Assembly: GCA_947474495.1 (NCBI GenBank)
Contig: CANJIM010000001.1
Span: 27,939-91,938 of the forward strand
Source of the DNA: Rhodospirillaceae bacterium
GTDB taxonomy: Bacteria; Pseudomonadota; Alphaproteobacteria; SMXQ01
Reading direction: 5' to 3'
DNA length: 64,000 bases
Positions 3,829 through 40,486 of this stretch are shown in pieces; the stretch's first letter is position 1; each line of letters starts with the position of its first letter. Under the pieces are notes generated by a model. It was not told the DNA's origin and ran no database searches. It was given only the letters and a program-made list of their open reading frames with translations. The position numbers and the translations under genes were made by a program.

Positions 3829-4617
3829 TTACGCCAATAATTTCCGGGCTTTTTCGAGGTCGGCCGGAGTATCGACGCCGAGCGGAACGGTGTCAACGAA
3901 GGCCACCTCGATACGCATGCCGGCTTCCAGCGCGCGCAGTTGCTCGAGCTTCTCGCGTTTTTCCAGCGCAGACGGCGGCAGAGCGACGAAACGCTCCAGC
4001 GCGTCGCGCCGATAGGCGTAGAGCCCGATGTGGTGATAGAGCGGGCCGTCGCCATGGGGCGCGGTGGCGCGGGTGAAGTAAAGCGCCCGTCCTCCAGTAG
4101 AAGCGCCGCCGTTGCCCGATGCATTGGGGCTGACGACAGCTTTCACCACATTGGGATCGGTCTTTTCCGCCGGCTCCTTGATGGCGCAGGCCAGCGTCGA
4201 GAGATCGACGGCAGGGTCGGCCAGCAGTTCGAAGGCGGCGCGCGGCAAGGCCGGGTCGAGCGTCGGCAGGTCGCCCTGCAGATTGACGATGGAATCGTAC
4301 TTGCCGGCCGGGTCGAGCTTTTGCAGCGCCTCGAAGATGCGGTCGGAGCCGGAGGGATGGTCCGGGTCGGTCATCACCGCCTCGCCGCCAGCCGCCTTCA
4401 CGGCGTCGAAAATCGCCGCATCGCCGCAAGCGACCACCACGGGCCCCAATTTGGCCTCCATGGCGCGGCGCCACACCTGCACGATCATCGGGAGACCGTG
4501 GAGCTCCGCCAGGGGCTTGTTCGGCAGGCGCGTCGAGGCCAGGCGCGACGGAATCAGCACCAGGGGCGATTTGGGCGCGCGGCGCGCCGAGGCAGGGGAA
4601 GAAGCGTCTGACAACAT
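3829..4617 (-). CDS. kdsB: 3-deoxy-manno-octulosonate cytidylyltransferase (CMP-KDO synthetase)
   Basis: 262 aa, [27 protein letters not shown]...SGSDRI...NLQGDLP motifs of KdsB. 6-nt gap to pheA, same strand. Confidence 0.9.
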
Positions 4618-9426: not shown

Positions 9427-9428
9427 CC

Positions 9429-10508
9429 ATGAGCGATCTCACGATCTCCACACCGCCCCCGCAAGACCGCCTGTTCGGCTTGCTCGCCATCACGCCGCTG
9501 ACCCGCCGCCGCATCGAAAATTTCCGCGCCAACAAGCGCGGCTTCTGGTCGCTGTGGATTTTTTTGACGCTGTTCGTGCTCAGCCTGTTCGCCGAATTTC
9601 TCGCCAATGACAAGCCGATCCTGGTGAAGTATGAGGGCGCCTATTACATGCCGATCTTCAGCTTCTATCCGGAGACGGCGTTCGGCGGCCAATTCCCGAC
9701 CGAGGCCAACTTCACCGATCCCTGGCTGCGCGAGCGCATCGCCACCCAAGGCTGGATGATCCAACCGCCGGTGCCTTACACTTATCGCACGATCAACTAT
9801 CGCCTCGACGTGCCGGCGCCGGCGCCGCCGTCGGCTGCCAACTGGCTCGGCACCGACGATCAGGGGCGCGACTTGCTCGCCCGCCTGATCTACGGTTTCC
9901 GTATCTCGGTGCTGTTCGGTCTGGCGCTGACCCTCGTCAGCTCCGTCATCGGCATCGCCGCCGGCGCGGTCCAGGGCTATTTCGGCGGCCGCGTCGATCT
10001 CTATGCCCAACGCTTCATCGAAGTGTGGTCGGGCCTGCCGGAGCTCTACATCCTGCTGATCATCACCAGCTTGCTGGTGCCGGGCTTCTGGACTCTGCTC
10101 GCTGTACTCCTCCTGTTCAGTTGGACGTCGCTCGTCGCCGTGGTGCGCGCCGAATTCCTGCGCGGACGCAATTTCGCCTATGTCAGAGCGGCTCGCGCCT
10201 TGGGGGTCGGCGATGGCATGATCATGTGGCGCCATATCCTGCCCAATGCCATGGTCGCGACACTGACCTTCATGCCCTTCATCCTCAACGGCTCGATCAC
10301 CTCACTGACGGCGCTCGACTTCCTCGGTCTCGGCCTGCCACCCGGCTCGCCGTCGCTCGGCGAAGTGCTCAACCAGGGCAAAGACAACCTGCAAGCGCCC
10401 TGGCTCGGCATCTCCGGCTTCGTCGTCATCGCCGCGATGCTCAGCCTGCTGATCTTCATCGGCGAAGCGGTGCGCGACGCTTTCGATCCACGCAAGAGCC
10501 TGCGGTAA
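9429..10508 (+). CDS. yejE: ABC transporter permease (YejE-like)
   Basis: 359 aa polytopic protein with permease signature, 2 nt after yejB. Confidence 0.85.
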   Translation: MSDLTISTPPPQDRLFGLLAITPLTRRRIENFRANKRGFWSLWIFLTLFVLSLFAEFLANDKPILVKYEGAYYMPIFSFYPETAFGGQFPTEANFTDPWLRERIATQGWMIQPPVPYTYRTINYRLDVPAPAPPSAANWLGTDDQGRDLLARLIYGFRISVLFGLALTLVSSVIGIAAGAVQGYFGGRVDLYAQRFIEVWSGLPELYILLIITSLLVPGFWTLLAVLLLFSWTSLVAVVRAEFLRGRNFAYVRAARALGVGDGMIMWRHILPNAMVATLTFMPFILNGSITSLTALDFLGLGLPPGSPSLGEVLNQGKDNLQAPWLGISGFVVIAAMLSLLIFIGEAVRDAFDPRKSLR

Positions 10509-10513
10509 GGGAC

Positions 10514-12184
<1,671 letters not shown>

Positions 12185-16109: not shown

Positions 16110-17201
16110 CTAAGGCTTAGCCGCCGTCGGCTGGGCAGGCGCGGTCGCGTTCTTCAGCACGCCCATTTCCGTATAAAACCGCGCCGCCCCAGGATGCAAC
16201 GGGATGGTCAGGCCATTGAGGGCGCTGGCCAGCGACATCTGCCGGCCGGCCAGGTGGCCATTCGCCAGCATCGGCTGCGCCGACTTGTGCCATAGCGCTT
16301 TCAGCAAATTGTAGGCCATGTCGTCGCTCAACTTGCTGTTGGCGACCCACAGCGAATAGATCCCCAGGCTGGCGACATCCGCGGTCATGCCGGCGTAACT
16401 GCCGGTCAAAATGGTCATCGCCAAGTAGGCTGGCTCTTCCTTGCGCAGCGCAGCGAAGATCGCTGGCGGCAAGGGCAGAAGCTCAATGGGCATCACCTCG
16501 GCGAGTTGGGCGATGGCGGGCGCCGGCACGCCGCCGACGTAGAACAGCGCGTCGAGCTGGCCGTTGCGCATCATGTCGACCGCAAGGCCAAGCTCGACCA
16601 TCGTCGGCTTGAAATCCGTCGGCTTGAGGCCGGCGCGCGCCAATACGTTGCGCGCCAGCGGCTGGGTACCGGATCCCTCGGTGTCGATCGAGACTCGTTT
16701 GCCCTTGAGACCGGCGATCGAAGTGATCTTCGCGTCGCGCCTGACCACCACCTGCAGGGTTTCGGGATAAAGGCTGGTCAAGGCGCGGAGCGCGGTCTGG
16801 CGGTTGGCCCCGGTGAAGGCCCCCTTGCCCTCGTAGGCCTGCGCCGCCACGTCGGCCTGAATAATGCCCGAATCCAGCCGGCCGCGGCCGACTTCGCGCG
16901 CATTGTCGGCCGATCCTTGGGTCGCCTGAGCGACAGCGATCAGGCCGGGGATGCCGCAGCTGCCGCCGCGGTCGCAGGGCCGCGAGCCCGGCGGGTTGCT
17001 CACCACGCTGGAAATCAGCCCGCCGATGGAGAAATTGACGCCGGCGGTCGAGCCGGTGCCGATGCGGAAGAAGCGCAGGTCCTGGGCGTGCAGTGCACCG
17101 CCCGCCAAGCCAGCCACCAACAGGACACACAGCGCCAGCCCGCCGATCTTGCGACCGGCAATCCTGCGGCGACTGGTGTGGGCGAAACGGCCTCTCATCA
17201 T
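16110..17201 (-). CDS. TAXI-family TRAP transporter solute-binding protein (orphan: no DctQM-type permease adjacent)
   Basis: 363 aa, signal peptide, TAXI signatures (RIGTGSTAGV, ...VGGVPAPAIAQLA). Neighbours are a GST and a PPK2. Confidence 0.75.
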   Translation of the reverse strand: MMRGRFAHTSRRRIAGRKIGGLALCVLLVAGLAGGALHAQDLRFFRIGTGSTAGVNFSIGGLISSVVSNPPGSRPCDRGGSCGIPGLIAVAQATQGSADNAREVGRGRLDSGIIQADVAAQAYEGKGAFTGANRQTALRALTSLYPETLQVVVRRDAKITSIAGLKGKRVSIDTEGSGTQPLARNVLARAGLKPTDFKPTMVELGLAVDMMRNGQLDALFYVGGVPAPAIAQLAEVMPIELLPLPPAIFAALRKEEPAYLAMTILTGSYAGMTADVASLGIYSLWVANSKLSDDMAYNLLKALWHKSAQPMLANGHLAGRQMSLASALNGLTIPLHPGAARFYTEMGVLKNATAPAQPTAAKP

Positions 17202-17248
17202 CCAGTCTTAACGCTGCAGCGCGCGATCTAGCAACGGTCTGGGCAAAT

Positions 17249-18091
17249 TTATTTTTTCTGGCGTCGCCCAGAAAGCGGGCTTGGCGGTGAGAGACCAACG
17301 CGCCGGGCGGCGGCAATGAGGCCCTTGGCCAATGGCGGCGGCGTCATATCCATGCCCTCACCCAAATGCGCGACAATGGTCTCCAGCGCGGCGATGCGCC
17401 CCAGAGACTTGTCCTCGAACGGCACGGCGAACCATGGCGCGCCCTTCGGCGAGCAACGCGCGAACATCTCGTTGACGGCCGCTTCGTAGTCGGCGCGCAA
17501 AACGATGTTTCGCAGGTCGGAGGGACCCAGCTTCCAGCTTTCCAGCGGATCGGCCATGCGCGCAGCCAGACGTTCGCGCTGGGCCTCAATCGAGACATGG
17601 AGGAACAGTTTGACGATGCGCACGCCGTCGTCGGTCAACATCTTCTCGAAGGCGTTGATCTCGCCGTAGGCGCGGCGCCAGACTGCCGGCTTGGCAAAGT
17701 TCTCGGCACGCTCGACCAATACGCGGCCGTACCAGGAGCGGTCAAAAATGGCGAGCACGCCGGGGCGCGGCAACCGCCGCCAGAAGCGCTGCAAATATTG
17801 CTCGCCGCGTTCGGTCTCAGTCGGAGCGCCGATGGGCCAGACCTGGTAGCCGCGCGGATCGAGCGGCGCGGTCAGCCGTTGAATCAGGCCACCCTTGCCG
17901 ACGGCATCCCAACCTTCGATGACTATGATCGAACGCTGGCCGGAAAATTTATAGGCCAACTGCAGCTGGCGCAGACGCGTCTGCACCGCCTTGTGTCGTT
18001 TGCGGTAGGTCGTCTTGGCAAGCACCCTGCGCAGATCGACGTCCGCGAGGGCGCCGTCTGGCGACAGGACATAGGACTTCGGATCAGGCAT
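17249..18091 (-). CDS. Polyphosphate kinase 2 family protein (PPK2, polyphosphate:nucleotide phosphotransferase)
   Basis: 280 aa, Walker A IVIEGWDAVGKGG, Walker B/lid region and LFLHVS...E motif characteristic of PPK2. Confidence 0.85.
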   Translation of the reverse strand: MPDPKSYVLSPDGALADVDLRRVLAKTTYRKRHKAVQTRLRQLQLAYKFSGQRSIIVIEGWDAVGKGGLIQRLTAPLDPRGYQVWPIGAPTETERGEQYLQRFWRRLPRPGVLAIFDRSWYGRVLVERAENFAKPAVWRRAYGEINAFEKMLTDDGVRIVKLFLHVSIEAQRERLAARMADPLESWKLGPSDLRNIVLRADYEAAVNEMFARCSPKGAPWFAVPFEDKSLGRIAALETIVAHLGEGMDMTPPPLAKGLIAAARRVGLSPPSPLSGRRQKK

Positions 18092-18141
18092 AGGGACGGC
18101 TCCTTCAGTCTGTGCCGCCCGTAACCGAGATCAGCCGCGGA

Positions 18142-19830
18142 TCAATTGCCGTCGGCCAGAGGCTCTTCCGTCGGCGCGATGTCACCTGGGGCCTTGCGCT
18201 TGAACAAGACGTAACGGTCGAACTGGGCAACGATATCGTAGTTCTTCCATTCCTCGGCGAAGGCCGGAATGCTGAGGAAGTATTCCGTCAGGTCGAACTC
18301 GCGGCCTCCGCACAAGCGGATGCCAGGGTTCTTGTCCATGACCACCAGCGCCGGATGATATTTGACGAAATCTTCCGACACGGCGCGGCGCAGCAGCTGT
18401 TCCATCGGCGGCATCTTGTCGACGTCGTGATAGCGCGCCTCTTCCGGCCGGCAGCTTTCATAGGCGCCCTGCAGCGGCCATATCGTCTGGAAGCGCATGG
18501 CGAGACGCGCATTGGCGTAATTGAGCACCGGGAAATGCGGATAGATGCCGGGAGAGATGATCAGCACCGGCTGGCCTTGGGCGTATTTCTTCACCAGCTT
18601 GAGCAGCTTGCCGGCCTGGCTGTTGTCGAAGTTGAGCTGATCGTAGAAGGTCGTACGCGTCGCGCCGGCGAGACAGAATAGCATCAGCATCAGCGCGCCG
18701 ACGGTGAGACGAAGCGGCGCCATGGAAAGCACCGGCATCAGTGGGGATGCGCGATCGGCGGCGAGGCGTTCGCCGAGCAGCTTGTCGATGCCCTGGCAGA
18801 TCACCAGCACGGTGAGCAGCAAGGTCATGACCTGCGCCGGCAACAGATGATAAGGCCAACCCTTGGCCTGGGCGACGCCGGCCACCGCGCCGCCGAGCGC
18901 GGCGAGGCCCGCCATGCGCGTGAGCGGCGACAGGCGCAGCAGGAAGGCGCCGATGGTGAGCGGAATCATCATCAGCATGAAGGGCGCGAGCAAGCGGCCG
19001 TAAAGCACATGCAGCGGGTTAGTGCCGCCGATTTCTTCGTAGCTGTCGAAGATCAGTGGCAGCACCGAGGTGAAATAATCGGGCGTGACGAACCAGGCGG
19101 CGGCGACATAAGCCACCAACACGCCGAGCAGGATCCATGGCACGGTATCGGTCAGCGTCTTGCGCCAGCCGCGCGACGCCAGCAAGTAGACCTCGACCAG
19201 CAGCGGAATGGCGAGGAAATGGGGTTTCAGCGCGAAGCCGAGACCGGCGACGATCGCGATGCTGATCAACCGGCCACGCGGCACTTTGAGTCCGTCGAAG
19301 CGCGCTGCGGCGAGCATCACGTACGGCACCGCGCCGAGCAGCATGAGATGCTCGCGCTGGGCGTACATCTCGCCGGGATAGACGACCGCAAGGAAGAGCA
19401 CGAGCGGCAGGAAGATCATGTGTTGGCTGCGCGCCGCCGGCTCGGTCAGCGTCGGGAACATGCGCCAGCTGACGACGCTGCTCCACAGGGCGAGCGCCAG
19501 CACGCACAACACCAGGGCCTGCGTGTCCTGCGTCGACAACAGACGCGACACCGCCGCCGGGATCAGGTTGAGCATGAAAATGAGCGGCGGATTGACATCG
19601 ATCATGTCGACGTACATGCGCTCGCCGCCGAGCCAGCGGTCGGAGATCGCCAAGATCACGGCGACATCGTGATTGAGTGGCGGAATGAGATAAGCGATGA
19701 CCCAGGCGAACGGCAGCAGCAGGAATGCGCCGGGCACCAGCCAAGCGAGAACGCGCTCCGCAGGGTCCGCAGACGACAGGCGCGCGCGGGCCAAGGACGA
19801 CTCGCGCGGCGATAAATCGGAGGTGGTCAT
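18142..19830 (-). CDS. Polytopic membrane protein with GT-C-fold glycosyltransferase architecture (ArnT/PMT_2-like), family assignment uncertain
   Basis: 562 aa, about 11 predicted TM helices in the first 400 aa, Asp-rich first periplasmic loop (NHDVA...DMIDVNPP), about 160-aa soluble C-terminal domain. Divergently adjacent to an ArnC-like GT2 / flippase / aminotransferase set. Confidence 0.5.
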   Translation of the reverse strand: MTTSDLSPRESSLARARLSSADPAERVLAWLVPGAFLLLPFAWVIAYLIPPLNHDVAVILAISDRWLGGERMYVDMIDVNPPLIFMLNLIPAAVSRLLSTQDTQALVLCVLALALWSSVVSWRMFPTLTEPAARSQHMIFLPLVLFLAVVYPGEMYAQREHLMLLGAVPYVMLAAARFDGLKVPRGRLISIAIVAGLGFALKPHFLAIPLLVEVYLLASRGWRKTLTDTVPWILLGVLVAYVAAAWFVTPDYFTSVLPLIFDSYEEIGGTNPLHVLYGRLLAPFMLMMIPLTIGAFLLRLSPLTRMAGLAALGGAVAGVAQAKGWPYHLLPAQVMTLLLTVLVICQGIDKLLGERLAADRASPLMPVLSMAPLRLTVGALMLMLFCLAGATRTTFYDQLNFDNSQAGKLLKLVKKYAQGQPVLIISPGIYPHFPVLNYANARLAMRFQTIWPLQGAYESCRPEEARYHDVDKMPPMEQLLRRAVSEDFVKYHPALVVMDKNPGIRLCGGREFDLTEYFLSIPAFAEEWKNYDIVAQFDRYVLFKRKAPGDIAPTEEPLADGN

Positions 19831-20100
19831 GGTAATCTATGGCTTCCTGGTCACGCCTGGCTGCACACCGCCGAAGGACGACGCTCACAACATAGTAGGC
19901 ACGAAGCCGGGGCAACCCCTTGCCGTTTCCCGCGCATCTTCAGCCCCCCGCTGATGTTTTGCTTCTTGGACGACGTTCGGGAAATGACGTATTTACGACC
20001 CAACGGCCGATCTCGCAAGACGTTAGGCAGGCTTTACGGCGCTTTTAGGGCTTGTCCTGGAAACTCGCAGTGGCACCAATAACCAAGAAAAATCAAAGAG

Positions 20101-20859
20101 ATGGAACCCATCGAGTATGAGCGGATGCATGCCGTCGAAGACCGCATGTGGTGGTTCCGCGGCCTGCACGCCAATGCCCTCGCGGCTTATCGCGCTGCAC
20201 GCGGCCAAATAAAGCGCCCCGGATTGACGCTCGATGCCGGCTGCGGCACGGGCGGTTTGCTGACCCGCGTCGCCGCGCAAGACGGCGCCGGCGCGGCCAT
20301 CGGCCTCGACGTCGATCCGCGCGCCGCCATGTTCGCCCGCCGCAAAAGCGGCTGCGCCGTGACGCTGGGCAGCGTCAACGCCCTGCCCTTTCGCGAGAAC
20401 AGCTTCGCCGCCATGTTCAGCATGGACGTGCTTTGCCACCGCGCCGTCGACCCCGCCGCGGCCTTACGGGAAGCCGAGCGCTGCCTCGCCCCCGGCGGCG
20501 TGCTGATTCTCAATCTGCCGGCTTATCCTTGGCTGCTGTCGGCCCATGATGTGCAGGTGCACAATGCCCGGCGCTTCACCCGGCCGCAGGTCCGCGCCAT
20601 GCTGCATGCCGCCGGCTTCCCAGAAGCGCGCATCGGCTATTGGAACATGGGCCTATTCCCGCTGATGGTGTTGCGCCGCAAACTGCTGCCGAGCGACGAT
20701 GGCAGCGACGTCCAGCTTTACCCCGCGCCGGTCGAGGCGCTGTTCCGCGCTGTGCTCGCCATCGAGCGCTGGGTCATGGGACTGGGCATCAACCTACCGT
20801 TCGGCGGTTCGCTGTTGGCCGTGGCGGTCAAGCCCGGCACCCCGCAATCGGCGCAATAA
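20101..20859 (+). CDS. Class I SAM-dependent methyltransferase
   Basis: 252 aa, motif I LDAGCGTGGL, motif post-I/II present (GLDVDPRA, LPFRENSFAAMFSMDVL). Size and fold resemble TylM1/DesVI-type sugar N-methyltransferases but equally UbiE-like enzymes. Confidence 0.7.
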   Translation: MEPIEYERMHAVEDRMWWFRGLHANALAAYRAARGQIKRPGLTLDAGCGTGGLLTRVAAQDGAGAAIGLDVDPRAAMFARRKSGCAVTLGSVNALPFRENSFAAMFSMDVLCHRAVDPAAALREAERCLAPGGVLILNLPAYPWLLSAHDVQVHNARRFTRPQVRAMLHAAGFPEARIGYWNMGLFPLMVLRRKLLPSDDGSDVQLYPAPVEALFRAVLAIERWVMGLGINLPFGGSLLAVAVKPGTPQSAQ

Positions 20860-20951
20860 AGCCGTAATTCCCTGCAATAAAGCTTTGCCGGCGAGCCTAT
20901 CGCCGGGGTTTCGCTCCCCGCCGTTTAACGGCATCATGCAAAGCACAGACA

Positions 20952-21971
20952 ATGATCCGCAGCATCGACATGAGCGCCTTGAATATGACTGGTCGCCCCT
21001 TCGCGCTTTCCATCGTCATCCCCGTTTATAACGGCGCGGCCACTATCGGCACGCTGGTCGACGCGCTGGCCGAGCTGCAAGTCGAGGGCGGCCACGAGAT
21101 CGTCCTCGTCAACGACGGCAGCCGCGACAATAGCGCCGAGGTCTGCCGCAAGCTGGCGGAGCGCCGCGACGTGCCGGTCAGCTTCGTCGATCTATCGCGC
21201 AACTTCGGCGAGCACAACGCGGTGATGGCCGGGTTCAACCATGTGCGCGGCGACTATGTCATCAACATGGACGATGACCTGCAGAATCCGCCGTCCGAAG
21301 TGCTCAAGCTCTATCGCTACACGCGCGACAATGGCTATGACGCCGTCTACACGCGCTACGCCGAGAAGAAGCACGACGCCTGGCGCAACATCGGCAGCCG
21401 CTTCGCCAATTGGGTCGCCGACCGTCTGCTCGACAAGCCGAAGGGCTTGTACCTCTCGAGCTTTCGCTGCCTGAGCGCCATGGTCGTCGAGAACGTCGTG
21501 CGCTACCAGGGCCCCTACCCTTACGTCGACGGCCTGGTGATGCAGGTGACGCAGAACATCGGCTCCGTCGAAGTCGAGCATTTCGCCCGCGTCGAAGGCC
21601 GCAGCAACTACACGATCAGCAAGCTGATCGGGCTGTGGCTCAATCTGTTCGTCAACTTCTCCGTCGTGCCGTTACGCATCAGCATCATCCTCGGCTTCCT
21701 GATGAGCGCGCTCGGCGTCGTCGGCGCCGTCTGGGTGACCATTGAGGCGTTCGGCGGCGAGACGCCGCAAGGTTGGGCCTCGCTGATGATCGCCGTACTG
21801 CTATTGTCGGGTATTCAGCTCATTCTGCTCGGCGTCGTCGGCGAATATCTCGGCCGCGTCTTCCTCACCGCCAACCGCAAGCCGCAATTCCTGGTGCGCC
21901 AGCTGATGCGCCCCGAGTCGCGCGCAGACGCCGTCACCGACCTGCGCCAACCGACTGCGGGAATCCGCTAA
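20952..21971 (+). CDS. GT2-family polyprenyl-phosphate glycosyltransferase (ArnC/GtrB-like) with C-terminal TM helices
   Basis: LSIVIPVYNG...VLVNDGSRDNS...DDDLQNP (DxD) GT-A motifs and two C-terminal TM segments (LRISIILGFLMSALGVVGAVWV, ASLMIAVLLLSGIQLILLGVVG) typical of ArnC/DPM1-like enzymes. Start could be 20952, 20970 or 20985. Confidence 0.8.
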   Translation: MIRSIDMSALNMTGRPFALSIVIPVYNGAATIGTLVDALAELQVEGGHEIVLVNDGSRDNSAEVCRKLAERRDVPVSFVDLSRNFGEHNAVMAGFNHVRGDYVINMDDDLQNPPSEVLKLYRYTRDNGYDAVYTRYAEKKHDAWRNIGSRFANWVADRLLDKPKGLYLSSFRCLSAMVVENVVRYQGPYPYVDGLVMQVTQNIGSVEVEHFARVEGRSNYTISKLIGLWLNLFVNFSVVPLRISIILGFLMSALGVVGAVWVTIEAFGGETPQGWASLMIAVLLLSGIQLILLGVVGEYLGRVFLTANRKPQFLVRQLMRPESRADAVTDLRQPTAGIR

Positions 21972-21973
21972 TC

Positions 21974-22312
21974 ATGATGATCTATTACCTCTCGCTGGCC
22001 GCCGGCATCCTGCTCGGCGTCGCGGCGCAGTTGCTGTTGAAGGTCGGCGCCTCGGGCGAAGGCAGCATCATCGACCAATTCCTCAAGCCGCAGAGCATCA
22101 TCGGCCTCGGCCTCTACGGCTTCGCCGCCGTGTTCTACATGCTGGCGCTGCGGAAAATTCCGGTCTCGGTGGCGTTCCCCAGCGTGGCGCTCAGCTATGT
22201 GGTGCTGGCCGTGCTCAGCAATCTTTGGCTGAAAGAACCGCTTGGCCTGATGCAGGTCGTCGCCTTGGTACTGATCGTCACCGGCGTGGTACTGCTCAAC
22301 AACCACGCCTGA
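21974..22312 (+). CDS. Small 4-TM SMR/EamA-like membrane protein (ArnE/ArnF-like putative lipid-linked sugar flippase subunit)
   Basis: 112 aa, 4 predicted TM helices, starts 3 nt after the GT2 stop. Size and position match ArnE/ArnF of arn operons but only one copy is present. Confidence 0.6.
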   Translation: MMIYYLSLAAGILLGVAAQLLLKVGASGEGSIIDQFLKPQSIIGLGLYGFAAVFYMLALRKIPVSVAFPSVALSYVVLAVLSNLWLKEPLGLMQVVALVLIVTGVVLLNNHA

Positions 22313-22318
22313 GGCGCA

Positions 22319-23458
22319 CTAGCCCTTCAGCGCCGCCTTCACCGCAGAAACCGTTTCTGCCACCTGCGCATCGGTGAGCTGCGGGAACATCGGCAGGCTG
22401 AGCACTTCCTGCGACGCTTTCTCCGTCATCGGCATTTTTCCTTGGGCGAGCCAAGTGTGGCCGGCATAGGCCGGTTGCAGATGCACCGGCATGGGGTAAT
22501 GCACGTTGGTGCCGATGCCGAGATCGCGCAGCTTCGCCTGCAGCGCGTCGCGCGCGCCGCTGCGGATCACATATTGATGAAACACATGGCCGGCACTGTC
22601 ACGGCGCAGCGGCAAGGGGCAAAGACCTGCCAGCTCTTTATCGTAGACGCCGGCAATGGCAGCGCGGCGGGCGTTCTCGCCAGCCAGATATTTAAGCTTC
22701 ACGCGCAGCATGGCGGCATGCAGCTCGTCGAGCCGGGTGTTCATGCCGGAGATGTCGCTGATATAGCGCTTGCGCCAGCCATACTCGCGGATCGCACGAA
22801 TCTTTTCGGCCAGTACCGCATCGTTGGTGGTGACGATGCCGCCGTCGCCGAAGGCGCCGAGGTTTTTGGTCGGATAGAGGCTGAAGGCCGCTGCATTGCC
22901 CCACGAGCCCACCGGCTTGCCGCCGAGCGTTGCGCCATGAGCCTGGGCGCAGTCTTCGATGACGGCGATGCCGTGCTGTTTGGCGATGGCGGCGATGGCC
23001 GGCATATCGGCGATCTGGCCGTAGAGATGCACGACGATGACGGCCTTGATCTTCGGCTTGTCGCCTTTCCCGCCCGTCATATTCCCCGCAAGCGCCGCTT
23101 CAAGCGCCGCCGGGCTGAGCGTGAAGTGATCGTCGATGTCGGCGAGCACCGGCGTCGCGCCGACCAGCTCGATGGAGGCGACGGTGGCGACTGCCGTATG
23201 CGACACGGTGACGACGCCGTCACCCCGCCCGATGCCGAGGCCGCGCAGAATGATCTCCAGCGCGTCGGTGCCGTTGGCGACGCCGATGCCATGCGCCGCG
23301 GACTCGAAGGCGGCAAATTCCTTTTCGAAAGTGGCGACCTCCTGGCCGAGAATGTACCAGCCGCTATCGAGCGCGCGGGTGACCGCAGCGTCGATCTCCG
23401 CCTTGTGGGCGAGATAGCCGGCCTTGGGATCGGCCTGCAGAACGCGAATGTCGGCCAC
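22319..23458 (-). CDS. DegT/DnrJ/EryC1/StrS-family PLP-dependent sugar aminotransferase (ArnB/WecE/VioA-like)
   Basis: 379 aa, conserved PLP lysine region (AFSLYPTKNLGAFGDGG), GTDAL and HLYG motifs. 9-nt gap to the upstream SDR gene. Confidence 0.85.
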   Translation of the reverse strand: MADIRVLQADPKAGYLAHKAEIDAAVTRALDSGWYILGQEVATFEKEFAAFESAAHGIGVANGTDALEIILRGLGIGRGDGVVTVSHTAVATVASIELVGATPVLADIDDHFTLSPAALEAALAGNMTGGKGDKPKIKAVIVVHLYGQIADMPAIAAIAKQHGIAVIEDCAQAHGATLGGKPVGSWGNAAAFSLYPTKNLGAFGDGGIVTTNDAVLAEKIRAIREYGWRKRYISDISGMNTRLDELHAAMLRVKLKYLAGENARRAAIAGVYDKELAGLCPLPLRRDSAGHVFHQYVIRSGARDALQAKLRDLGIGTNVHYPMPVHLQPAYAGHTWLAQGKMPMTEKASQEVLSLPMFPQLTDAQVAETVSAVKAALKG

Positions 23459-23467
23459 GAACGTCTC

Positions 23468-24469
23468 CTATAGATAATGCGCGAGATTGGCGCGGTAATA
23501 AGCGATCGACCGGCGCAGACCCTCGACCAGATCGACGCGCGGCGCCCAACCGGTGGCGGCGCGGAAGGCGCGGTCGTCGGCTTCGTAATCGCCGATGTCG
23601 ATGCGCTTGCGATCGGCGGGAAATTCCATACGCTTGAAGCCACCCTGGCCGCCGTTGGCGGCGATCAGGGCCTCGGCCAAGGTATCGAGGCTCACTGCGC
23701 CGCTGCCATTATGATGGGCACCGCCGAGATTATAGGCGTTGCCGGCGCAGGCTGGCGCGTCGATCGCCGCGATGAAGGCGTCGGCCACGTCGTCGGCATA
23801 GGTGAAGTCGCGCTTCTGCGCGCCGCCCCACACCTCGAACGGCTGATCTTCCAAGATGCGGCGGATCCAGATGCCGACGAAGGTCTGGCGCGCGTCTTTC
23901 ACCCGCATGCGCGGACCGTAACAATTGGTCAAGCGCAGCGCCGTCGCCGCCAGGCCATGCACCTTGGCATAGATCAGGTGATGCTGCTCGGCGGCGAGCT
24001 TATGCACGCCGTTGACGTCAGGCGGCCGCAACGCATGCTTCTCGTCGACCGGCAGATAATCCGGCACGCCGTAGAATTGCCGTGTCGAGGCATAGACGAT
24101 CCGCGCCGTGGGTCGGCGCGTGCGCACCAGTTCGAGCAGGCCAAGCTGTGCCGTGACGTTGGCGGCCAGATCGCCGAGCGGATCGCTCATCGAATCCATA
24201 TGGCCGGTGCGGCCGGCAAGATTGAAGATCGCGTCGCTGCGCTCGATCAGAGGCGTCATCGCGACGGCATCGCCGATGTCGCCTTTCACTAGAGTGAAGG
24301 GCGCGGCCAAGCCGTCGAGATTGAACGGATTGGCGCCACCCTCGGGCAAGAAGCTGTCGACGGCGGTGACTTCGGCGCCCAGGGACGCGAGGCGATGGGC
24401 CAGCGTCGCGCCGAGAAAGCCGGCGCCGCCGGTGATCAGCGCCTTGCGGCCCTGCCAGCTAGTGGTCAC
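23468..24469 (-). CDS. NAD-dependent nucleotide-sugar epimerase/dehydratase (extended SDR; UDP-GlcA decarboxylase or 4-epimerase/4-keto-reductase-like)
   Basis: 333 aa, [18 protein letters not shown] Rossmann motif, YASTRQFYG/YxxxK region similar to ArnA C-terminal and UXS enzymes. Start overlaps the rmlA stop (ATGA). Confidence 0.75.
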
Positions 24470-25344
24470 GGGGCGAGACCGCCCCGCAGGATCTCGCGGA
24501 GATAAGCGCCGAGATCGTTGTTCTTATAGCGCTCGGCGAGCGCCGCCAGGCCGTGTTGGTCGATATAGCCCATGCGATAGGCGATCTCTTCCAGGCAGGC
24601 GATCTTGAGGCCCTGGCGTTCTTCGACCATCTGCACGAAGACGCCGGCCTGCAGCAAGGAATTGGGCGTGCCGGCATCGAGCCAGGCATAGCCGCGGCCC
24701 AAGCGCTCGACGCGCAGCGAGCCTTCGGCGAGATAGACGTTGTTGAGATCGGTGATCTCCAGCTCGCCGCGCGGGGACGGCTTGAGCGCCTCGGTGAACT
24801 TCACCACGCGCTCGTCGTAGAAATAGAGCCCGGTGACGGCGTAGTTCGACTTCGGCTCTTTCGGCTTCTCGACGATGCGCGTCGCGCGATTATCGGCGTC
24901 GAACTCGACGACGCCATAGCGTTCGGGATCCTTCACCCAATAGGCGAAGGTGGTGGCGCCCTTGCCTGCGGCTGCGGCGTTTTTCAACGAAGCGCTGAGG
25001 CCGTCGCCGTAAATGATGTTATCGCCGAGCGCCAAGGCGCAGCCTTCACCAGCGATGAAGTCGCGGCCGATCAGGAAGGCCTGCGGAATACCCTCGGGCT
25101 GCGGCTGCGCGGCGTAGGACAGTTCGACGCCCCACTGGCTGCCGTCGCCGAGGACTTTTTGATATTGCGGCAGGTCTTCCGGCGTCGAGATCAGCAGGAT
25201 CTCGCGGATGCCGGCGAGCATCAGCGTCGACAGCGGATAATAGACCATCGGCTTGTCGTAGACCGGCAGTAGCTGCTTGGAGATGGCCAGGGTGATCGGA
25301 TGCAGTCGCGTGCCGCGACCGCCCGCCAGAACGATGCCCTTCAC
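24466..25344 (-). CDS. rmlA: Glucose-1-phosphate thymidylyltransferase
   Basis: 292 aa, [18 protein letters not shown]...[12 protein letters not shown]. Near-canonical RmlA/RfbA N-terminus. Confidence 0.9.
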
Positions 25345-26426
25345 GATTTTGCTCCCGCCGTCTTTTTGTTGTCAGTCGCCAGGCCAAGCCGCTGGCCCGC
25401 ATAAGCGCCCTTGCGGATGCCCTGCCACCAAGGCCGATGATCGAGATACCAGCGGACCGTCTGCTCGAGACCCTTGAGGAAGCTCATGCGCGGCTTCCAA
25501 CCCAGCTCGCGCTCGATGCGTGAGATGTCCATGGCATAGCGGAAATCGTGGCCCGGGCGGTCGGTCACGTAGGTGATGAGTTTGCGCCGCTCGCCGATGC
25601 CAGCGTCCGGCGCGATCCGGTCGAGAATGTCGCAGATGCCCTCGACGACTTCGAGGTTGCGATGCTCCTCGCCGCCGCCGATGCCGTAGGTTTCGCCGAC
25701 TTTGCCGCGCGTCAGCACCAGATGCAGGGCTTCGGCGTGATCGTCGACATGCAGCCAGTCGCGCACGTTGGCGCCCTTGCCGTAAACCGGCAGCGGCTTG
25801 CCTTCCAACGCGTTGAGCGTGACCAGCGGGATGAGCTTTTCCGGGAACTGCCAGGGGCCGTAATTGTTGGTGCAGTTGGTCAGCAGCACCGGCAGGCCGT
25901 AAGTGTGATGCCAGGCGCGCACCAAGTGATCGCTTGAAGCCTTGCTCGCCGAATAGGGCGAGGACGGCGCATAAGGCGTCTCTTCGGTGAACTTGCCGGT
26001 CTCGCCGAGCGCGCCGAACACCTCGTCGGTCGAGACATGGTGGAAGCGGAAGGCCGCCTTGCGCGACTCCGGCAGCGCCGACCAATAGGCGCGCGCCGCT
26101 TCCAAGAGCACATAGGTGCCGACGATGTTGGTCTGGATGAAGGCGGCCGGGCCGTCGATCGAGCGGTCGACATGGGTTTCCGCCGCCAGATGGATGATGG
26201 CGTCCGGCTGATGGCGGGCCAAGATCGCCGCCACGGCGCTGGCGTCGGCGATATCGGCCTTTTCATGGATATGGCGGTGGTGGCCGAACGCCTCTTCCAG
26301 CGCGTCGGGGCTGGCGGCATAGGTCAGCTTGTCGAGATTGACGATCGCGGCGTCGGTGGTGCGCAACAGATGGCGCACCAGGGCCGAACCGATGAAGCCG
26401 AAGCCTCCGGTGATGAGAATTTTCAT
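25341..26426 (-). CDS. rmlB: dTDP-glucose 4,6-dehydratase
   Basis: 361 aa, [36 protein letters not shown] (YxxxK), canonical RmlB. 4-nt overlap with rmlA. Confidence 0.9.
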
Positions 26427-26605
26427 AGGCGAAAGGCCTGACAGGCGGGTCGATTGCGCATGGCGCCCGACGCTAAGGTATCGCTCTCACCGACGCAAGC
26501 CGCTGAAATTCCAGTCATCCTACGGCCCTCCAGAGCCGATTTCGCCACTCTGGAGGGGGATTGCGGCGCCTTCACGACGCTGTTGCCGTGAAGTCGCCGC
26601 AAATC

Positions 26606-27727
26606 TTAAGCGTGGCTGCTGGAGCCCGCCTTGACCTTGTCGAACATCGACCAGACGCCGGCTTCGCCGTCCCAGCTGCCCTTGCTGGCGGCCTTGGAAT
26701 ATTCCGTGGCGCGCTGCTCGAAGAAGTTGGCGTGCTCGACACCGTTGAGGATCTCGCTGAGCCAGGGCAACGGATGCGCCTTGGTCTGCTTGTAGCCGCT
26801 CGATTCCTCGATGAAATAGCCGAACACCGGGGTCAGCTTGAGCTGCGTCAGGCGCCAGTCGGCGACATAGCGCACATAAGCCTGGATATCCTCCGGCGTC
26901 ATGCCGTCGACCGGGCCCAAGCTGAAGGCGAGGTCGATGAATTTCTCTTCGAGGCCGACCATGGTCTTGGCGACGTCGACGATGTCGTCGCGCACCGCCT
27001 TGGTGACGGCGCCGGTCTCGCGGTTCCAGGTGTGGAACAGCTTGATGATGCCTTCGCAATGCAGGCTTTCGTCGCGCACCGACCAGCTGACGATCTGGCC
27101 CATGCCGTTCATCTTATTGTGGCGCGGGAAATTCAGCAGCATGGCGAAGCTGGCGAACAGCGCCATGCCCTCGGTGAAGGCGCCGAACATGGCGAGTGTG
27201 CGCGCCACATCGCCGACCGTGTCGGTTCCGAAGGTGTGCATGTAGTCGGCCTTGGCGCGCAGTTCGGCGTAATCGCGGAACGCCTCGAATTCCGACTGCG
27301 GCATGCCGAGCGTTTTCAGCAGCAGGGCATAGGCGTCGATATGGACCGTCTCCATGTTGGAGAAGGCGGCCATCATCATCTGCACTTCGAGCGGCTGGAA
27401 AATCGGGATGTAGCGCTTGAGATAATTGTCGCCGACCTCGACGTCCGACTGGGTGAAGAAGCGGAAGATCTGCGTCAGCAACGCACGCTCGGAATCGGTC
27501 ACGCGATCCGACGTCCAATCCTTGATATCGGAGCCGAGCGGCACTTCCTCACCCATCCAATGGGTCTGCTGCTGGCGCTTCCAGCAGTCGTAGGCCCAAG
27601 GATAACGGTCGACGTTGTAGGTGCCGGTGGCGGTCAAGAGACCGACCTTGCCGGTGCCGATCAGCGTGCGCGGGTTGACGCCGATGAGGCCCTTAGGCGG
27701 AAGATCGATCACTGACATGACAGGCAT
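26606..27727 (-). CDS. nrdB: Class I ribonucleotide reductase small (beta) subunit
   Basis: 373 aa, ferritin-like di-iron motifs (E..H twice) and HIDAY radical-tyrosine context. Overlaps the nrdA end by about 19 nt. Confidence 0.85.
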   Translation of the reverse strand: MPVMSVIDLPPKGLIGVNPRTLIGTGKVGLLTATGTYNVDRYPWAYDCWKRQQQTHWMGEEVPLGSDIKDWTSDRVTDSERALLTQIFRFFTQSDVEVGDNYLKRYIPIFQPLEVQMMMAAFSNMETVHIDAYALLLKTLGMPQSEFEAFRDYAELRAKADYMHTFGTDTVGDVARTLAMFGAFTEGMALFASFAMLLNFPRHNKMNGMGQIVSWSVRDESLHCEGIIKLFHTWNRETGAVTKAVRDDIVDVAKTMVGLEEKFIDLAFSLGPVDGMTPEDIQAYVRYVADWRLTQLKLTPVFGYFIEESSGYKQTKAHPLPWLSEILNGVEHANFFEQRATEYSKAASKGSWDGEAGVWSMFDKVKAGSSSHA

Positions 27728-29715
27728 TCCTCGTAATCGGTCGGCGCTGAGGCCGTCAAACCGGATTCAACTTTTTCTTCCAATTGGCCGGCGATGGCGG
27801 CGCGCGACAGCGACTTCGAGCGGCAATAGTAGAGGCTCTTCATGCCGCGCTTCCACGCCGTCCAGTGCAACATGTGCAGGTCCCACTTATCGATGTCGGC
27901 CGGCAGGTAAATGTTGATCGACTGGCTCTGGCAGATGTAGGGCGCGCGGTCAGCGGCGAGATCGATGATCCAGCGCTGATCGATCTCAAAGGCGGTGCGG
28001 TAGATCAGCTTTTCGTCGTCGGTCAGGCAATCGAGCTGCTGCACCGAGCCTTCGTGCTCGACGATGGACTGCCAGACTTCCGGCGTGTCCATGCCCTTCT
28101 TCTGCAGCAGCTTGGTGAGCTGGGCATTGCGCACCACGAAGGCGCCGGACAGCGTTTTATGCGTGTAGATATTGGCCGGAATCGGCTCGATGCAGGCACT
28201 GGTGCCGCCGCAGATAATGCTGATCGACGCCGTCGGCGCGATCGAGATCTTGTGGCTGAAACGCGCCGCCATGCCGCGCTCGGCGGCGTCCGGGCAAGCG
28301 CCGCGCTCTTCGGCGAGCAGCACCGAGGCGGCATCCGCCTCGCGGCGGATCTTGCGGAAGATGCGCATGTTCCAGGATTTCGCCAGGGCGCTTTCCATCG
28401 GGATGCCTTCGTCCTGCAGGAACGAATGGAAACCCATGACGCCGAGGCCGACCGAGCGCTCGCGCATCGCCGAATATTTGGCGCGTTGCATGCTGTCGGG
28501 CGCGATGTCGACGAAGAAGGTCAGCACGTTGTCGAGCATGCGCAGCACGTCTTCGACGAGGTTCGGCTCGTCGCACCATTCGTGCCAGGTCTCGATGTTG
28601 AGCGAGGCGAGGCAGCAGACGGCGGTGCGGTCTTCGCCGCGATGGTCCATGCCGGTCGGCAACACGATCTCGCTGCACAGGTTCGACGTGGTGACCTTGA
28701 GGCCGAGGTCGCGCTGATGCTTGGGCATGGCGCGGTTCACCGAATCGATGAACAGCAGATAGGGTTCGCCGGTCTGTAGGCGCGTCTCGAGAATGCGCTG
28801 CCACAGCTGGCGGGCATCGACCTCGCGCACCGGCTCGTTGTTCTTCGGGCTGCGCAGCTTGAACATGGCGCCGTCGCGCACGCAGTCCATGAACTCATCG
28901 GTGATGTTCAGGCCGTGATGCAGGTTGAGGCCCTTGCGGTTGAAGTCGCCCGAGGCCTTGCGGATTTCGAGGAACTCCTCGATCTCCGGATGATGAATGT
29001 CGAGATAGACGGCGGCCGAGCCGCGGCGCAGCGAGCCCTGGCTGATGGCGAGGGTCAGGCCGTCCATGACATGGATGAAGGGGATGATGCCCGACGTCTC
29101 GCCGTTGCCCTTCACCTTCTCGCCGATCGAACGGACCTTGCCCCAATAGGTGCCGATGCCACCGCCGTTGGAGGCAAGCCAGACGTTCTCGTTCCAGGTG
29201 TCGACGATGCCGTCGAGCGAATCGGGCACGCTGTTGAGGAAGCAGGAGATCGGCAGGCCGCGCGTCGTGCCGCCGTTCGACAGGATCGGCGTCGAGGGCA
29301 TGAACCACAGGCGCGACATGGCGTCGTACAGGCGCTGGGCGTGCTCGACGTCGTCGGCATAGGCGCAAGAGACGCGGGCGAACATGTCCTGGAAGCTTTC
29401 GCCCGGCATCAGGTAGCGGTCGGTCAGGGTGGCCTTGCCGAATGGCGTCAGCAGTTCGTCGCGCGAGCGGTCGAGCTTGAGGTCGGACGGCTGCGGCGGA
29501 CGCGCCAGCGGAAAGGGCAGCGGCGCGTGGCGCTCGACGCGCGGGCCGTCCTGCGGATGGGTCGCCGGCGTGGCGAAGGCCATGGCCGCCTGACGCGGCG
29601 CCTCCGCGACGACGCGCGGCTGCTGCAGCACCGGGCGCACCGGCGCCGGCGGCATCATCGGCGCCTGCGGCACGAGATTGCCCTGATGATCGAAGTCCAA
29701 TGCGAGAGACGACAT
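27709..29715 (-). CDS. nrdA: Class I ribonucleotide reductase large (alpha) subunit (no N-terminal ATP cone apparent)
   Basis: RNR_lg motifs PFIHVMDG..., SNLCSEI, C-terminal CxxC...ECLSCQ redox tail. Start placed at ATG 29713-29715 (MSSLALDF) preceded by GAGGGGAG. The ORF-track start at 29748 is a TTG. Confidence 0.85.
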   Translation of the reverse strand: MSSLALDFDHQGNLVPQAPMMPPAPVRPVLQQPRVVAEAPRQAAMAFATPATHPQDGPRVERHAPLPFPLARPPQPSDLKLDRSRDELLTPFGKATLTDRYLMPGESFQDMFARVSCAYADDVEHAQRLYDAMSRLWFMPSTPILSNGGTTRGLPISCFLNSVPDSLDGIVDTWNENVWLASNGGGIGTYWGKVRSIGEKVKGNGETSGIIPFIHVMDGLTLAISQGSLRRGSAAVYLDIHHPEIEEFLEIRKASGDFNRKGLNLHHGLNITDEFMDCVRDGAMFKLRSPKNNEPVREVDARQLWQRILETRLQTGEPYLLFIDSVNRAMPKHQRDLGLKVTTSNLCSEIVLPTGMDHRGEDRTAVCCLASLNIETWHEWCDEPNLVEDVLRMLDNVLTFFVDIAPDSMQRAKYSAMRERSVGLGVMGFHSFLQDEGIPMESALAKSWNMRIFRKIRREADAASVLLAEERGACPDAAERGMAARFSHKISIAPTASISIICGGTSACIEPIPANIYTHKTLSGAFVVRNAQLTKLLQKKGMDTPEVWQSIVEHEGSVQQLDCLTDDEKLIYRTAFEIDQRWIIDLAADRAPYICQSQSINIYLPADIDKWDLHMLHWTAWKRGMKSLYYCRSKSLSRAAIAGQLEEKVESGLTASAPTDYEECLSCQ

Positions 29716-29834
29716 GCCCACTCCCCCTCTAAAAAAACTCTGACTCAAATGCCGGCCGGGGTAATCGGACTCTTGCAGGACTCGGAATCGTCTCCTGCAA
29801 GCGTCGTCGGATCACCCCGCCCGAAAACTGTTTC

Positions 29835-30005
29835 GGCGTGCACGGCAGGTCTCCTGGCTCGCGGGTCGTCGCCGCTGTCTGGCCTTCCCGGCGCGCAACG
29901 CGCCAGTGGCGGTAATGACAGCAGGCTCGCCGCTTACAGTTGCGGGGGCAGCCCCGGCTTAAGCGCATCGCGCCGCACCGGCTTCCCTCTTAGCCCCGGA
30001 TATTG
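29835..30005 (-). promoter_or_regulatory. Cobalamin (B12) riboswitch in the nrdAB leader
   Basis: The minus-strand RNA contains GCUGCCCCCGCAACUGUAAGCGG, GCCACUGG, GGGAAGGC and the B12 box AGCCAGGAGACCUGCC (complement of + 29845-29860), in the order of the cobalamin riboswitch core. Confidence 0.85.
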
Positions 30006-30120
30006 CGATCCGGAGAACCGTGGACCCCAGATTTAGTGATGAAGGGCCCAACCCTGTCAAGCAACCGCTGGAAGCCCGCGGAAACATTGGCTCTGCGCCC
30101 ACCGAAGAAATTTCACGGGC

Positions 30121-40453: not shown

Positions 40454-40486
40454 GACGCGAACGGAAATAGAAGGAGCTCCCCCGCT

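Follow-up and report, generated by a model that had tools for sequence, protein, structure and literature searches.

The window, a stretch of 64,000 nucleotides from a Rhodospirillaceae bacterium (contig CANJIM010000001.1, positions 27,939 to 91,938), carries at its positions 18142 to 26426 an eight-gene locus that we interpret, with a probability of about 0.6, as a self-supplied three-component periplasmic glycosylation system that follows the logic of the Arn and Gtr systems, employs an amino-sugar donor and modifies an envelope acceptor. The parts of this reading differ in strength. It is very probable that the locus encodes a three-component system employing its 562-aa membrane protein as a GT-C glycosyltransferase, and there is good reason to think that the product of the neighboring aminotransferase (AT) and short-chain dehydrogenase/reductase (SDR) is the donor sugar of that system. 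The features of the locus are as follows.

18142..19830, minus strand: GT-C candidate, 562 aa; integral membrane protein with a C-terminal periplasmic alpha/beta domain, from an unannotated family
19831..20100, no strand: divergent intergenic region, 270 bp, separating the GT-C gene from the MT-GT2-SMR operon
20101..20859, plus strand: class I S-adenosylmethionine (SAM)-dependent methyltransferase (MT), 252 aa; Methyltransf_11/25/31/23 matches
20952..21971, plus strand: GT2 polyprenyl-phosphate (Pren-P) glycosyltransferase of ArnC/GtrB type, 339 aa; a GT-A domain and two C-terminal transmembrane (TM) helices
21974..22312, plus strand: EamA/SMR-like 4-TM protein (SMR), 112 aa; internal start within a longer open reading frame (ORF)
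22319..23458, minus strand: DegT-family pyridoxal phosphate-dependent AT, 379 aa; DesV/QdtB/WbpE clade
23468..24469, minus strand: atypical extended SDR, 333 aa; Epimerase match, with Asn at the catalytic Tyr position
24466..25344, minus strand: RmlA, glucose-1-phosphate thymidylyltransferase, 292 aa; TIGR01207 above cut-off
25341..26426, minus strand: RmlB, dTDP-glucose 4,6-dehydratase, 361 aa; TIGR01181 above cut-off

All eight genes appear in the window's ORF table at the positions given by the first-pass annotation, an earlier reading of this DNA, and in profile hidden Markov model (HMM) searches seven of the eight proteins match the expected Pfam/NCBIfam families, the 562-aa protein matching none. 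Both 4-nt overlaps located by that annotation exist, with the RmlB stop codon overlapping the RmlA start at 25341-25344 and the RmlA stop overlapping the SDR start at 24466-24469; their sequence is GTGA (a GTG start over a TGA stop), not the ATGA that was reported. The 9-nt gap between the SDR stop and the AT start is also present, and the AT start codon is a GTG with a GGAG 7 nt upstream. On the plus strand, the GT2 stop codon (TAA) occupies positions 21969-21971, and the ATG of the SMR gene lies 2 nt past it, at 21974. The 270-bp divergent region presumably holds the promoters of both the GT-C gene and the MT-GT2-SMR operon; a consensus promoter and terminator scan of positions 17000-27000 yielded counts at the level of shuffled sequence, with no sigma-70 consensus in 19831..20100.

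The GT-C protein and its conserved partners

The 562-aa protein has no Pfam, NCBIfam or PDB sequence match, and no detectable sequence or profile similarity to the GT83/PMT_2 (ArnT) family. Because profile HMMs found no family, its classification required a fold comparison. An AlphaFold (AF2) model, built on 41 relatives, has a predicted local distance difference test (pLDDT) score of 89.5 and a predicted TM-score (pTM) of 0.88, and a Foldseek search with this model returns the Cupriavidus ArnT as the top match over the full length (E 1.6e-6, TM-scores of 0.57/0.59). The predicted structure thus agrees with the GT-C fold proposed in the first-pass annotation and supports the protein being a GT-C enzyme, with a kinship to ArnT at the level of the fold only. 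The TM topology rests on the AF2 model and the comparison with GT-C enzymes, a crude hydropathy count of TM helices being uninformative.

The family around this protein is large and without annotation. In particular, among 5.8 billion proteins searched there were 334 relatives, each labeled 'hypothetical' and lacking a Pfam domain, and the family profile, when compared to 1.84 billion cluster representatives (50% identity), matched 3,156 clusters at E<=1e-30 and, at the looser E<=1e-3, 6,262. Searching Pfam at E<=10 with 41 family members gave zero matches, and ten diverse representatives gave no Pfam match either; the family profile found 0 matches among PDB sequences, which were also searched by phmmer. 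When aligned by hhalign to a PMT_2 protein from Aliidongia, the profile returned a probability of 0.4, indicating no relationship. One distant representative (P0388) sits on a 3-kb contig and lacks neighbor context.

Several residues are invariant in the family alignment: D55, D78, K202, E213, Q158-R159-E160, K323-G-W-x-Y-H328, C460 and C507; D75 is nearly so. The loop after TM1 (PPLNHD55...R65W66...D75..D78.N80.P82) is a candidate catalytic loop, as its invariant acids sit where GT-C enzymes place their catalytic carboxylates. Moreover, the C-terminal soluble domain contains exactly two cysteines, both invariant, which fits a periplasmic disulfide.

The GT2 protein scores 102 bits to Glycos_transf_2, 175 bits to the ArnC equivalog NF007986 (cut-off 529) and 161 bits to PgfS, and it aligns over its full length with the PDB structures of ArnC (9hwj, 1e-45) and GtrB (5ekp, sll0501, 7.5e-39). 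ArnC, GtrB and DPMS carry a DADLQ[N/D/H] motif (PMC12690121). The counterpart in the GT2 protein of this family's DADLQN/D motif is DDDLQN. The end-to-end alignments and this motif together identify the GT2 protein as a polyprenyl-phosphate glycosyltransferase, though not as an ArnC equivalog, and its earlier description as ArnC-like is borne out in the sense of an ArnC/GtrB-type enzyme with a DxDLQ motif.

The 112-aa protein exceeds the Pfam cut-off for EamA (41.5 bits, cut-off 28.2), falls just short of that for Multi_Drug_Res (23.4 bits, cut-off 23.7) and is weakly similar to ArnF (32.3 bits, cut-off 99) and ArnE (26.3 bits, cut-off 92). A single EamA/SMR-like 4-TM gene is therefore present, as had been proposed, and its product is, by analogy, the candidate flippase for the lipid-linked sugar; being encoded by one gene, it probably acts as a homodimer.

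The MT matches Methyltransf_11 at 65.5 bits, and its AF2 model (pLDDT 89.5) has generic class I small-molecule methyltransferases as its fold neighbors, including TleD, the phosphoethanolamine N-methyltransferases (PEAMT) and RebM/AtmM. A C-terminal membrane anchor in the MT was considered and ruled out, as residues 209-243 form part of the folded domain in the AF2 model.

To assess conservation, 21-kb pieces of 80 genome loci encoding relatives of the GT-C protein were searched with all proteins of the window; these loci, some of which are cited below by number, come from Ferrovibrio, Reyranella, Vineibacter, Enhydrobacter, Oceanibaculum, other Alphaproteobacteria and a few Burkholderiales metagenome-assembled genomes. 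The GT2 gene lies next to the GT-C gene in 78 of the 80 loci, the two exceptions being contig ends, and the GT2 orthologues are 58-89% identical; the MT and SMR genes each accompany it in 73 loci. The synteny itself, with the GT-C gene divergent from MT-GT2-SMR, recurs in 78/80 loci from different genera, which is far beyond chance. Cultured carriers of the new GT-C family include Ferrovibrio xuzhouensis KCTC 42182 and Oceanibaculum pacificum, as well as Enhydrobacter aerosaccus ATCC 27094 and Vineibacter terrae, both of which lack an adjoining AT-SDR. A Pren-P glycosyltransferase, a transferase with a GT-C fold and a small multi-TM flippase candidate within the operon are thus all found, as in a three-component system.

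The AT, the SDR and the proposed donor sugar

The remaining four genes occur more selectively. The AT and the SDR genes each lie next to the GT-C gene in 28 of the 80 loci, and RmlA together with a true RmlB in only 8. Clustering of the GT-C sequences places the AT-SDR adjacency in nine clades, where the exceptions inside clades are truncated contigs and the Ferrovibrio locus L022; the clades that lack it are clade 13, which has a single locus, and the Reyranella/Vineibacter-type clades 2-5. In many clades, therefore, the units on the two strands are conserved together, as the first-pass annotation required of them. Its treatment of all eight genes as one unit holds for the GT-C gene and MT-GT2-SMR, whose association is near-universal, and gives way to a modular picture for AT-SDR and for RmlAB. 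Flanking genes in the Reyranella-type loci were considered as partners and rejected, as they belong, judging from their sequences, to unrelated metabolism (a crotonase, an ABC transporter, thioesterases and MaoC).

RmlA and RmlB are genuine, with scores above the NCBIfam equivalog cut-offs (465.7 bits against 360.65 for TIGR01207, and 480.4 bits against 365.1 for TIGR01181). RmlB-RmlA-SDR-AT are contiguous, with overlapping stop and start codons, in the window and in L002-L007, L010 and L033. The loci with adjacent RmlAB span GT-C identities from 85% to 40%, with L006, L007, L010 and L033 at 40-49%. Overall, it is likely that the donor precursor is dTDP-linked.

The position of the amine depends on the AT. 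The protein scores 366.8 bits to DegT_DnrJ_EryC1 and below every NCBIfam equivalog cut-off. Among PDB sequences, its best matches are 7b0d (326 bits), DesV (319 bits, ~50% identity), QdtB (282 bits), 5u1z (254 bits) and WbpE (247 bits); DesV, QdtB and WbpE aminate C3, and 5u1z is the Campylobacter WlaRG, a C3 enzyme too. In contrast, the C4 enzymes score at most 178 bits, which is the value for perosamine synthase, followed by ArnB (169-176 bits) and WecE-type enzymes (82-87 bits). The AT is far nearer to the C3 than to the C4 enzymes, so that amination at C3 of a dTDP-3-keto-6-deoxyhexose becomes the likelier reaction, and we consider C3 rather than C4 a fairly likely site of the amine. These scores run counter to the earlier proposal of C4 amination, and the AT groups neither with the WecE-type enzymes nor with ArnB.

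The SDR scores 163 bits to Epimerase, its best equivalog is TIGR01181 (108.6 bits, cut-off 365), and N153 falls on the catalytic Tyr when the protein is aligned with 7ys8 (a UDP-glucose 4-epimerase) or with UXS. Specifically, T129-N153-K157 (NGVHK) replaces the Ser/Thr-Tyr-Lys (YxxxK) triad, and STRQ replaces STDE/STSE; the NAD-binding region is intact in its glycines and acidic residues, with GGAGFLG (the Rossmann motif) and D38 kept. All 24 locus orthologues carry the motifs STRQ and D[IV]NG[IV]xK, as do 108 or more of the top 120 database homologues. Further, the SDR accompanies the AT obligately, its gene adjoining a DegT gene in the 28 loci and also in L081, L083-L086, L088 and L090. The first-pass annotation listed the SDR and gave it no role; its presence is confirmed, and its role is revised to that of a fixed, Tyr-less partner of the AT.

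C3 amination normally requires a cupin 3,4-ketoisomerase. No cupin/FdtA ketoisomerase was found in the locus, which has no intergenic room for one, among the small ORFs of the window or in the sampled SDR-AT contexts. The SDR would instead ready the keto sugar for the AT, through isomerization, epimerization via enolization, or a Tyr-independent oxidation. Literature searches on an SDR-type ketoisomerase and on PDB entries 7B0D, 8VR2 and 8VR3 gave only general papers on three-component systems and ArnC.

Alternatively, the AT could aminate C4 of the RmlB product directly, yielding a dTDP-4-amino-4,6-dideoxyhexose of viosamine/Fuc4N type, possibly N-methylated and carried on undecaprenyl phosphate to the GT-C enzyme; the SDR would then be at most accessory, for example as a non-redox epimerase acting on the 4-keto sugar. 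RmlAB indeed ends at a 4-keto sugar, the window contains no ketoisomerase, and DegT enzymes of differing regiochemistry are homologous. SDR active sites can also epimerize 4-keto sugars by enolization, as in GDP-fucose synthase and GDP-mannose 3,5-epimerase, so that a Tyr-less SDR epimerase acting ahead of C4 amination would be chemically possible. We nonetheless consider C4 amination unlikely, given the 247-319 bits of the AT to DesV, QdtB and WbpE, and because an obligate, conserved SDR partner is unexpected if the RmlB product is aminated directly.

A second alternative dispenses with the dTDP-sugar altogether: in a split Arn-like pathway, the SDR would oxidize or decarboxylate UDP-GlcA, or oxidize another UDP-sugar, and the AT would produce a UDP-amino sugar of Ara4N type, with RmlAB as mere neighbors. 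Consistent with this, the second-best PDB matches of the SDR are UDP-glucuronate decarboxylases (100 bits), the GT2 protein is nearest to ArnC and most AT-SDR loci lack an adjoining RmlAB. However, UXS and ArnA depend on the Tyr and on the STSE Glu, neither of which the SDR has, and the equivalog scores are far too low (26.9 bits for the SDR to ArnA NF005998, cut-off 777; 199.8 bits for the AT to ArnB, cut-off 631). No formyltransferase or deformylase is present in the window, and RmlB-RmlA-SDR-AT is translationally coupled here, with an order that is kept down to 40% GT-C identity. A UDP-based route is accordingly very improbable.

Exchange of modules between lineages and the proposed pathway

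The donor genes recur in lineages beyond the 80 loci, where they accompany different transferases. In an Azospirillaceae contig (L084), an RmlB-like gene (53% identical) is followed by SDR and AT; these genes run convergently to PAP2-EamA-GT2-MT and divergently from a 37%-identical GT-C gene. In Pseudoroseomonas (L081, 12303-15645), an Asn-containing SDR, SDR(N), and the AT are followed by a 545-aa DUF8436/FAD-type protein and then by a 524-aa, 27%-identical GT-C member, with no GT2 or MT within 10 kb. In four other loci (L086, L088, L089 and L090), orthologous MT (53-55% identical where measured) and GT2 (60-63%) genes follow a GT-C gene of the Pfam PMT_2 (ArnT) family. The EamA gene is present in L088-L090 of these PMT_2-type loci, with 45% identity in L088. 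For example, the cultured isolate Aliidongia dinghuensis (L088, GCA_014643535.1) has MT-GT2-EamA with a PMT_2 GT-C at 8136-12095 and 16695-18847. Orthologous SDR(N)-AT genes are adjacent or within ~5 kb in L086, L088 and L090, which is three of the four PMT_2-type loci; in the Stellaceae locus L089, no SDR(N)-AT was found within 10 kb of the module; waaA, lpxK, an msbA-like gene and a gene for a lipid A acyltransferase are located 3-8 kb away from this module. In L085, SDR-AT precede a 742-aa GT-C-like protein, and the adjacent methyltransferase is not an orthologue.

In L084, L086, L089 and L090, the GT2 gene starts inside the MT gene. Sharing of MT-GT2-EamA between the new GT-C family and the PMT_2 systems marks the donor module as a conserved unit, and the association of both SDR-AT and MT-GT2-EamA with at least two unrelated GT-C families argues most strongly for the amino sugar as the periplasmic donor. 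In L084, the MT-GT2-EamA operon contains an inserted gene (11226-12026, minus strand) for a PAP2-family phosphatase. It was considered as a partner of the system and rejected, as it occurs only in L084 and in 0/80 loci.

Several observations weigh against the proposed system. For 52 of the 80 loci, mainly in Reyranella/Vineibacter-type clades, the 10 kb on either side of the core are free of AT-SDR; the GT2 protein of these loci may use a common sugar, or AT-SDR may be elsewhere in the genome. RmlAB adjoins the core in only 8 loci, and the two genes could simply be the genome's rml genes. The regiochemistry of an AT is not reliably readable from its sequence, and the reaction of an SDR that lacks the catalytic Tyr is putative. 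Moreover, in Azospirillum (L082), the SDR(N) gene lies 4 kb from those for a GFO oxidoreductase, a hexapeptide acyltransferase and a separate DegT protein, all in the same cluster, which misfits a simple isomerase. The MT has no specific similarity to TylM1/DesVI by sequence or fold: neither protein is among the PDB sequence matches of the MT (E<=1e-3) nor among its top 50 Foldseek matches, though the MT may all the same be an N-methyltransferase. No Pren-P glycosyltransferase is known to take a dTDP-sugar. Finally, the support for lipid A as the acceptor is circumstantial.

The loci without AT-SDR invite the explanation that two independent systems lie side by side, with the core (GT-C, MT, GT2 and SMR) moving a common sugar (for example Glc, GlcNAc, Man or GalA), and RmlB-RmlA-SDR-AT serving a cytoplasmically assembled glycan, such as an O-antigen. 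Six or seven of the 52 loci also lack the MT, and SDR(N)-AT is found outside such systems, as a cassette in an ABC-transporter-type O-antigen cluster (L083) and in the other context of L082. Under this explanation, however, the presence of AT-SDR beside the core in nine GT-C clades, and beside other transferases in L081, L085 and the PMT_2-type loci L086, L088 and L090, would be coincidental; linkage that recurs with GT-C genes of different families fits this explanation poorly and points to a functional link. Two independent systems are quite unlikely.

The self-supplied three-component system would then operate as follows. RmlA and RmlB, whose chemistry is established, would provide dTDP-4-keto-6-deoxy-D-glucose. 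The Tyr-less SDR and the DesV/QdtB-like AT, acting as a fixed pair, would convert it to a dTDP-amino-dideoxyhexose, most likely a 3-amino-3,6-dideoxyhexose, with the SDR supplying the keto isomer or epimer that is otherwise made by a cupin 3,4-ketoisomerase. The class I MT, whose gene is tightly coupled to the GT2 gene, may modify the sugar, either by an N-methylation that would pull the transamination forward and keep the charge, much like formylation in the Arn pathway, or by methylation of the lipid-linked sugar. The ArnC/GtrB-type GT2 protein would move the sugar to undecaprenyl phosphate, the single EamA/SMR-like protein would flip the lipid-linked sugar, and the 562-aa GT-C enzyme would transfer it, at the periplasmic face, to a conserved envelope acceptor.

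Lipid A or the inner core is our best guess for this acceptor, and a tentative one. There are weak, circumstantial hints: the ArnT-like fold of the GT-C protein, the ArnT-family partner in the sister systems, the lipid A genes near the module in L089, and the PAP2 gene of L084, which recalls the LpxE/LpxF lipid A phosphatases acting before sugar addition. A further circumstantial hint is that the GT-C protein is conserved across orders in a housekeeping neighborhood, unlike serotype-specific Gtr enzymes. The fullest version of the proposal combines every part: a Tyr-less SDR that supplies a DesV-like AT, either in place of the cupin isomerase or as an oxidase or epimerase that needs no Tyr; a dTDP-3-amino-3,6-dideoxyhexose that is methylated and not formylated; ArnC-type loading onto undecaprenyl phosphate by what would be the first Pren-P glycosyltransferase known to act on a dTDP-sugar; and a new GT-C family of >3,000 clusters that attaches the sugar to lipid A or core, creating a new route to cationic lipid A that is widespread in Alphaproteobacteria. 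It is rather unlikely that all of these parts hold jointly.

If correct, the proposal would add a large GT-C family at the CAZy level that is invisible to Pfam and NCBIfam, a new type of periplasmic donor (an amino-dideoxyhexose that derives from a dTDP-sugar and is carried by undecaprenyl phosphate), a new subfamily of SDRs that can do without the usual Tyr, and methylation where the Arn pathway has formylation and deformylation. Cationic envelope modifications govern resistance to polymyxins and host peptides. Further, the exchange of an ArnT-family enzyme for the new GT-C family next to the same module amounts to a natural experiment that could show how enzymes of the GT-C class come by their donors and acceptors. 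The synthase-flippase-GT-C logic is already well known; the uncharacterized parts are the new transferase family, the SDR partner without its Tyr and the implied dTDP-derived lipid-linked donor, and all three are directly testable in cultured strains. Overall, the first-pass description stands in outline, as that of an amino-sugar system that is not of the arn type, works through a lipid carrier and has a GT-C enzyme; its C4 amination is probably wrong, its account of the SDR was incomplete, its TylM1-type methyltransferase is unsupported and its eight-gene unity was overstated.

Neighboring genes and comparison with known systems

Other features of the window surround the locus. The PPK2 gene (17249-18091) adjoins the GT-C gene in only 4 of the 80 loci, in keeping with its earlier description as a neighbor and not a member. 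On the other side, the locus is abutted by the class I ribonucleotide reductase genes nrdB (26606-27727) and nrdA (27709-29748). A cobalamin riboswitch (RF00174, 127 bits; 29827-30037, minus strand) lies directly upstream of nrdA, which implies a B12-dependent repression of the aerobic ribonucleotide reductase, an arrangement known from some bacteria. A bacterial small signal recognition particle (SRP) RNA (RF00169, 60.8 bits) occupies 910-1006 on the minus strand, and a 109-aa ORF (838-1167, plus strand) is probably spurious because it overlaps this RNA. Saccharopine-dehydrogenase-like and Orn/DAP/Arg-decarboxylase-like genes are side by side at 39032-41614 (plus strand), a pair that we take to resemble carboxy(nor)spermidine dehydrogenase and decarboxylase of polyamine synthesis. 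Three ORFs, at 43089-44009 (minus strand, 306 aa), 49234-50310 (plus strand, 358 aa) and 51392-52585 (plus strand, 397 aa), have coding-like GC content at third codon positions and no Pfam match at E<=1e-5. A CTP_transf_3 cytidylyltransferase that is KdsB-like, of the CMP-Kdo synthetase type, is encoded at 3829-4617 (minus strand), and an AsmA-family protein at 44094-46139 (plus strand); neither gene is linked to the locus in related genomes.

Among known systems, the Arn (Pmr) pathway, which adds L-Ara4N to lipid A in E. coli, Salmonella and Cupriavidus, follows the same logic: a DegT AT, an ArnC-type Pren-P glycosyltransferase, a small SMR/EamA-like flippase and a periplasmic GT-C enzyme. 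In contrast, the locus has no ArnA (decarboxylase/formyltransferase) and no ArnD, its AT belongs to the DesV/QdtB clade and not with ArnB, it has one flippase gene instead of Arn's two, its GT-C protein has no sequence similarity to PMT_2/ArnT, and it adds a SAM methyltransferase and RmlAB. No protein among the ORFs of the 64-kb window matches Formyl_trans or Polysacc_deac_1, there is no deacetylase either, and every Arn equivalog cut-off that was applied is missed (ArnB, 199.8/631; ArnC, 175/529; ArnF, 32.3/99; ArnE, 26.3/92). The locus is therefore not an arn operon. Nor is it a rhamnose operon, as no rmlC or rmlD lies within the 64 kb. Both conclusions agree with the first-pass annotation, whose statement that a formyltransferase, a deformylase, rmlC and rmlD are absent holds for the ORFs of the whole window. 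A literature search, which was not exhaustive, found no paper on the locus's combination of genes.

The pathways to dTDP-3-amino-3,6-dideoxyhexoses (RmlA and RmlB, then QdtA/FdtA/Tyl1a and QdtB/FdtB/TylB/DesV, followed by TylM1/DesVI) share with the locus RmlA, RmlB, an AT with ~50% identity to DesV and a nearby SAM methyltransferase. The locus differs in that a Tyr-less SDR stands in place of the cupin 3,4-ketoisomerase and its MT is not specifically TylM1/DesVI-like; without a cupin isomerase and a TylM1-like methyltransferase, it is not a canonical Qui3N/mycaminose pathway. Moreover, its product is proposed to go to a Pren-P glycosyltransferase, not to a Leloir GT-B/GT-A enzyme.

The Lgm system (GlcN in Bordetella), Flm/NaxD (GalN in Francisella) and PpgS/Rv3779 (GalN in mycobacteria) resemble the proposed pathway in carrying a cationic amino sugar on polyprenyl phosphate, which a GT-C enzyme adds outside the cytoplasm. 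The Lgm, Flm and PpgS systems load a UDP-HexNAc and then deacetylate it on the lipid, whereas the locus lacks a deacetylase and instead has an AT, an atypical SDR and RmlAB.

The three-component systems (GtrA/GtrB/Gtr* for glucosylation of O-antigen, CsbB/GtcA/YfhO and GT136) and the locus have in common the triad in which a synthase for the Pren-P sugar is encoded together with a small flippase and a GT-C enzyme, and the GT136 pentofuranose systems are a periplasmic glycosylation type of this kind (Kelly et al. 2024, PMC11127046). Compared to them, the flippase of the locus is EamA/SMR-like and not a GtrA or MATE protein, a methyltransferase is part of the module, and an amino-dideoxyhexose made by an operon of its own appears to serve as a dedicated donor. 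The Gtr enzymes are serotype-specific or phage-borne, in contrast to a GT-C protein that is kept in a housekeeping context across orders. With these differences, the closest known kind of locus is the three-component periplasmic glycosylation system, as represented by Gtr, Arn, Lgm/Flm and GT136.

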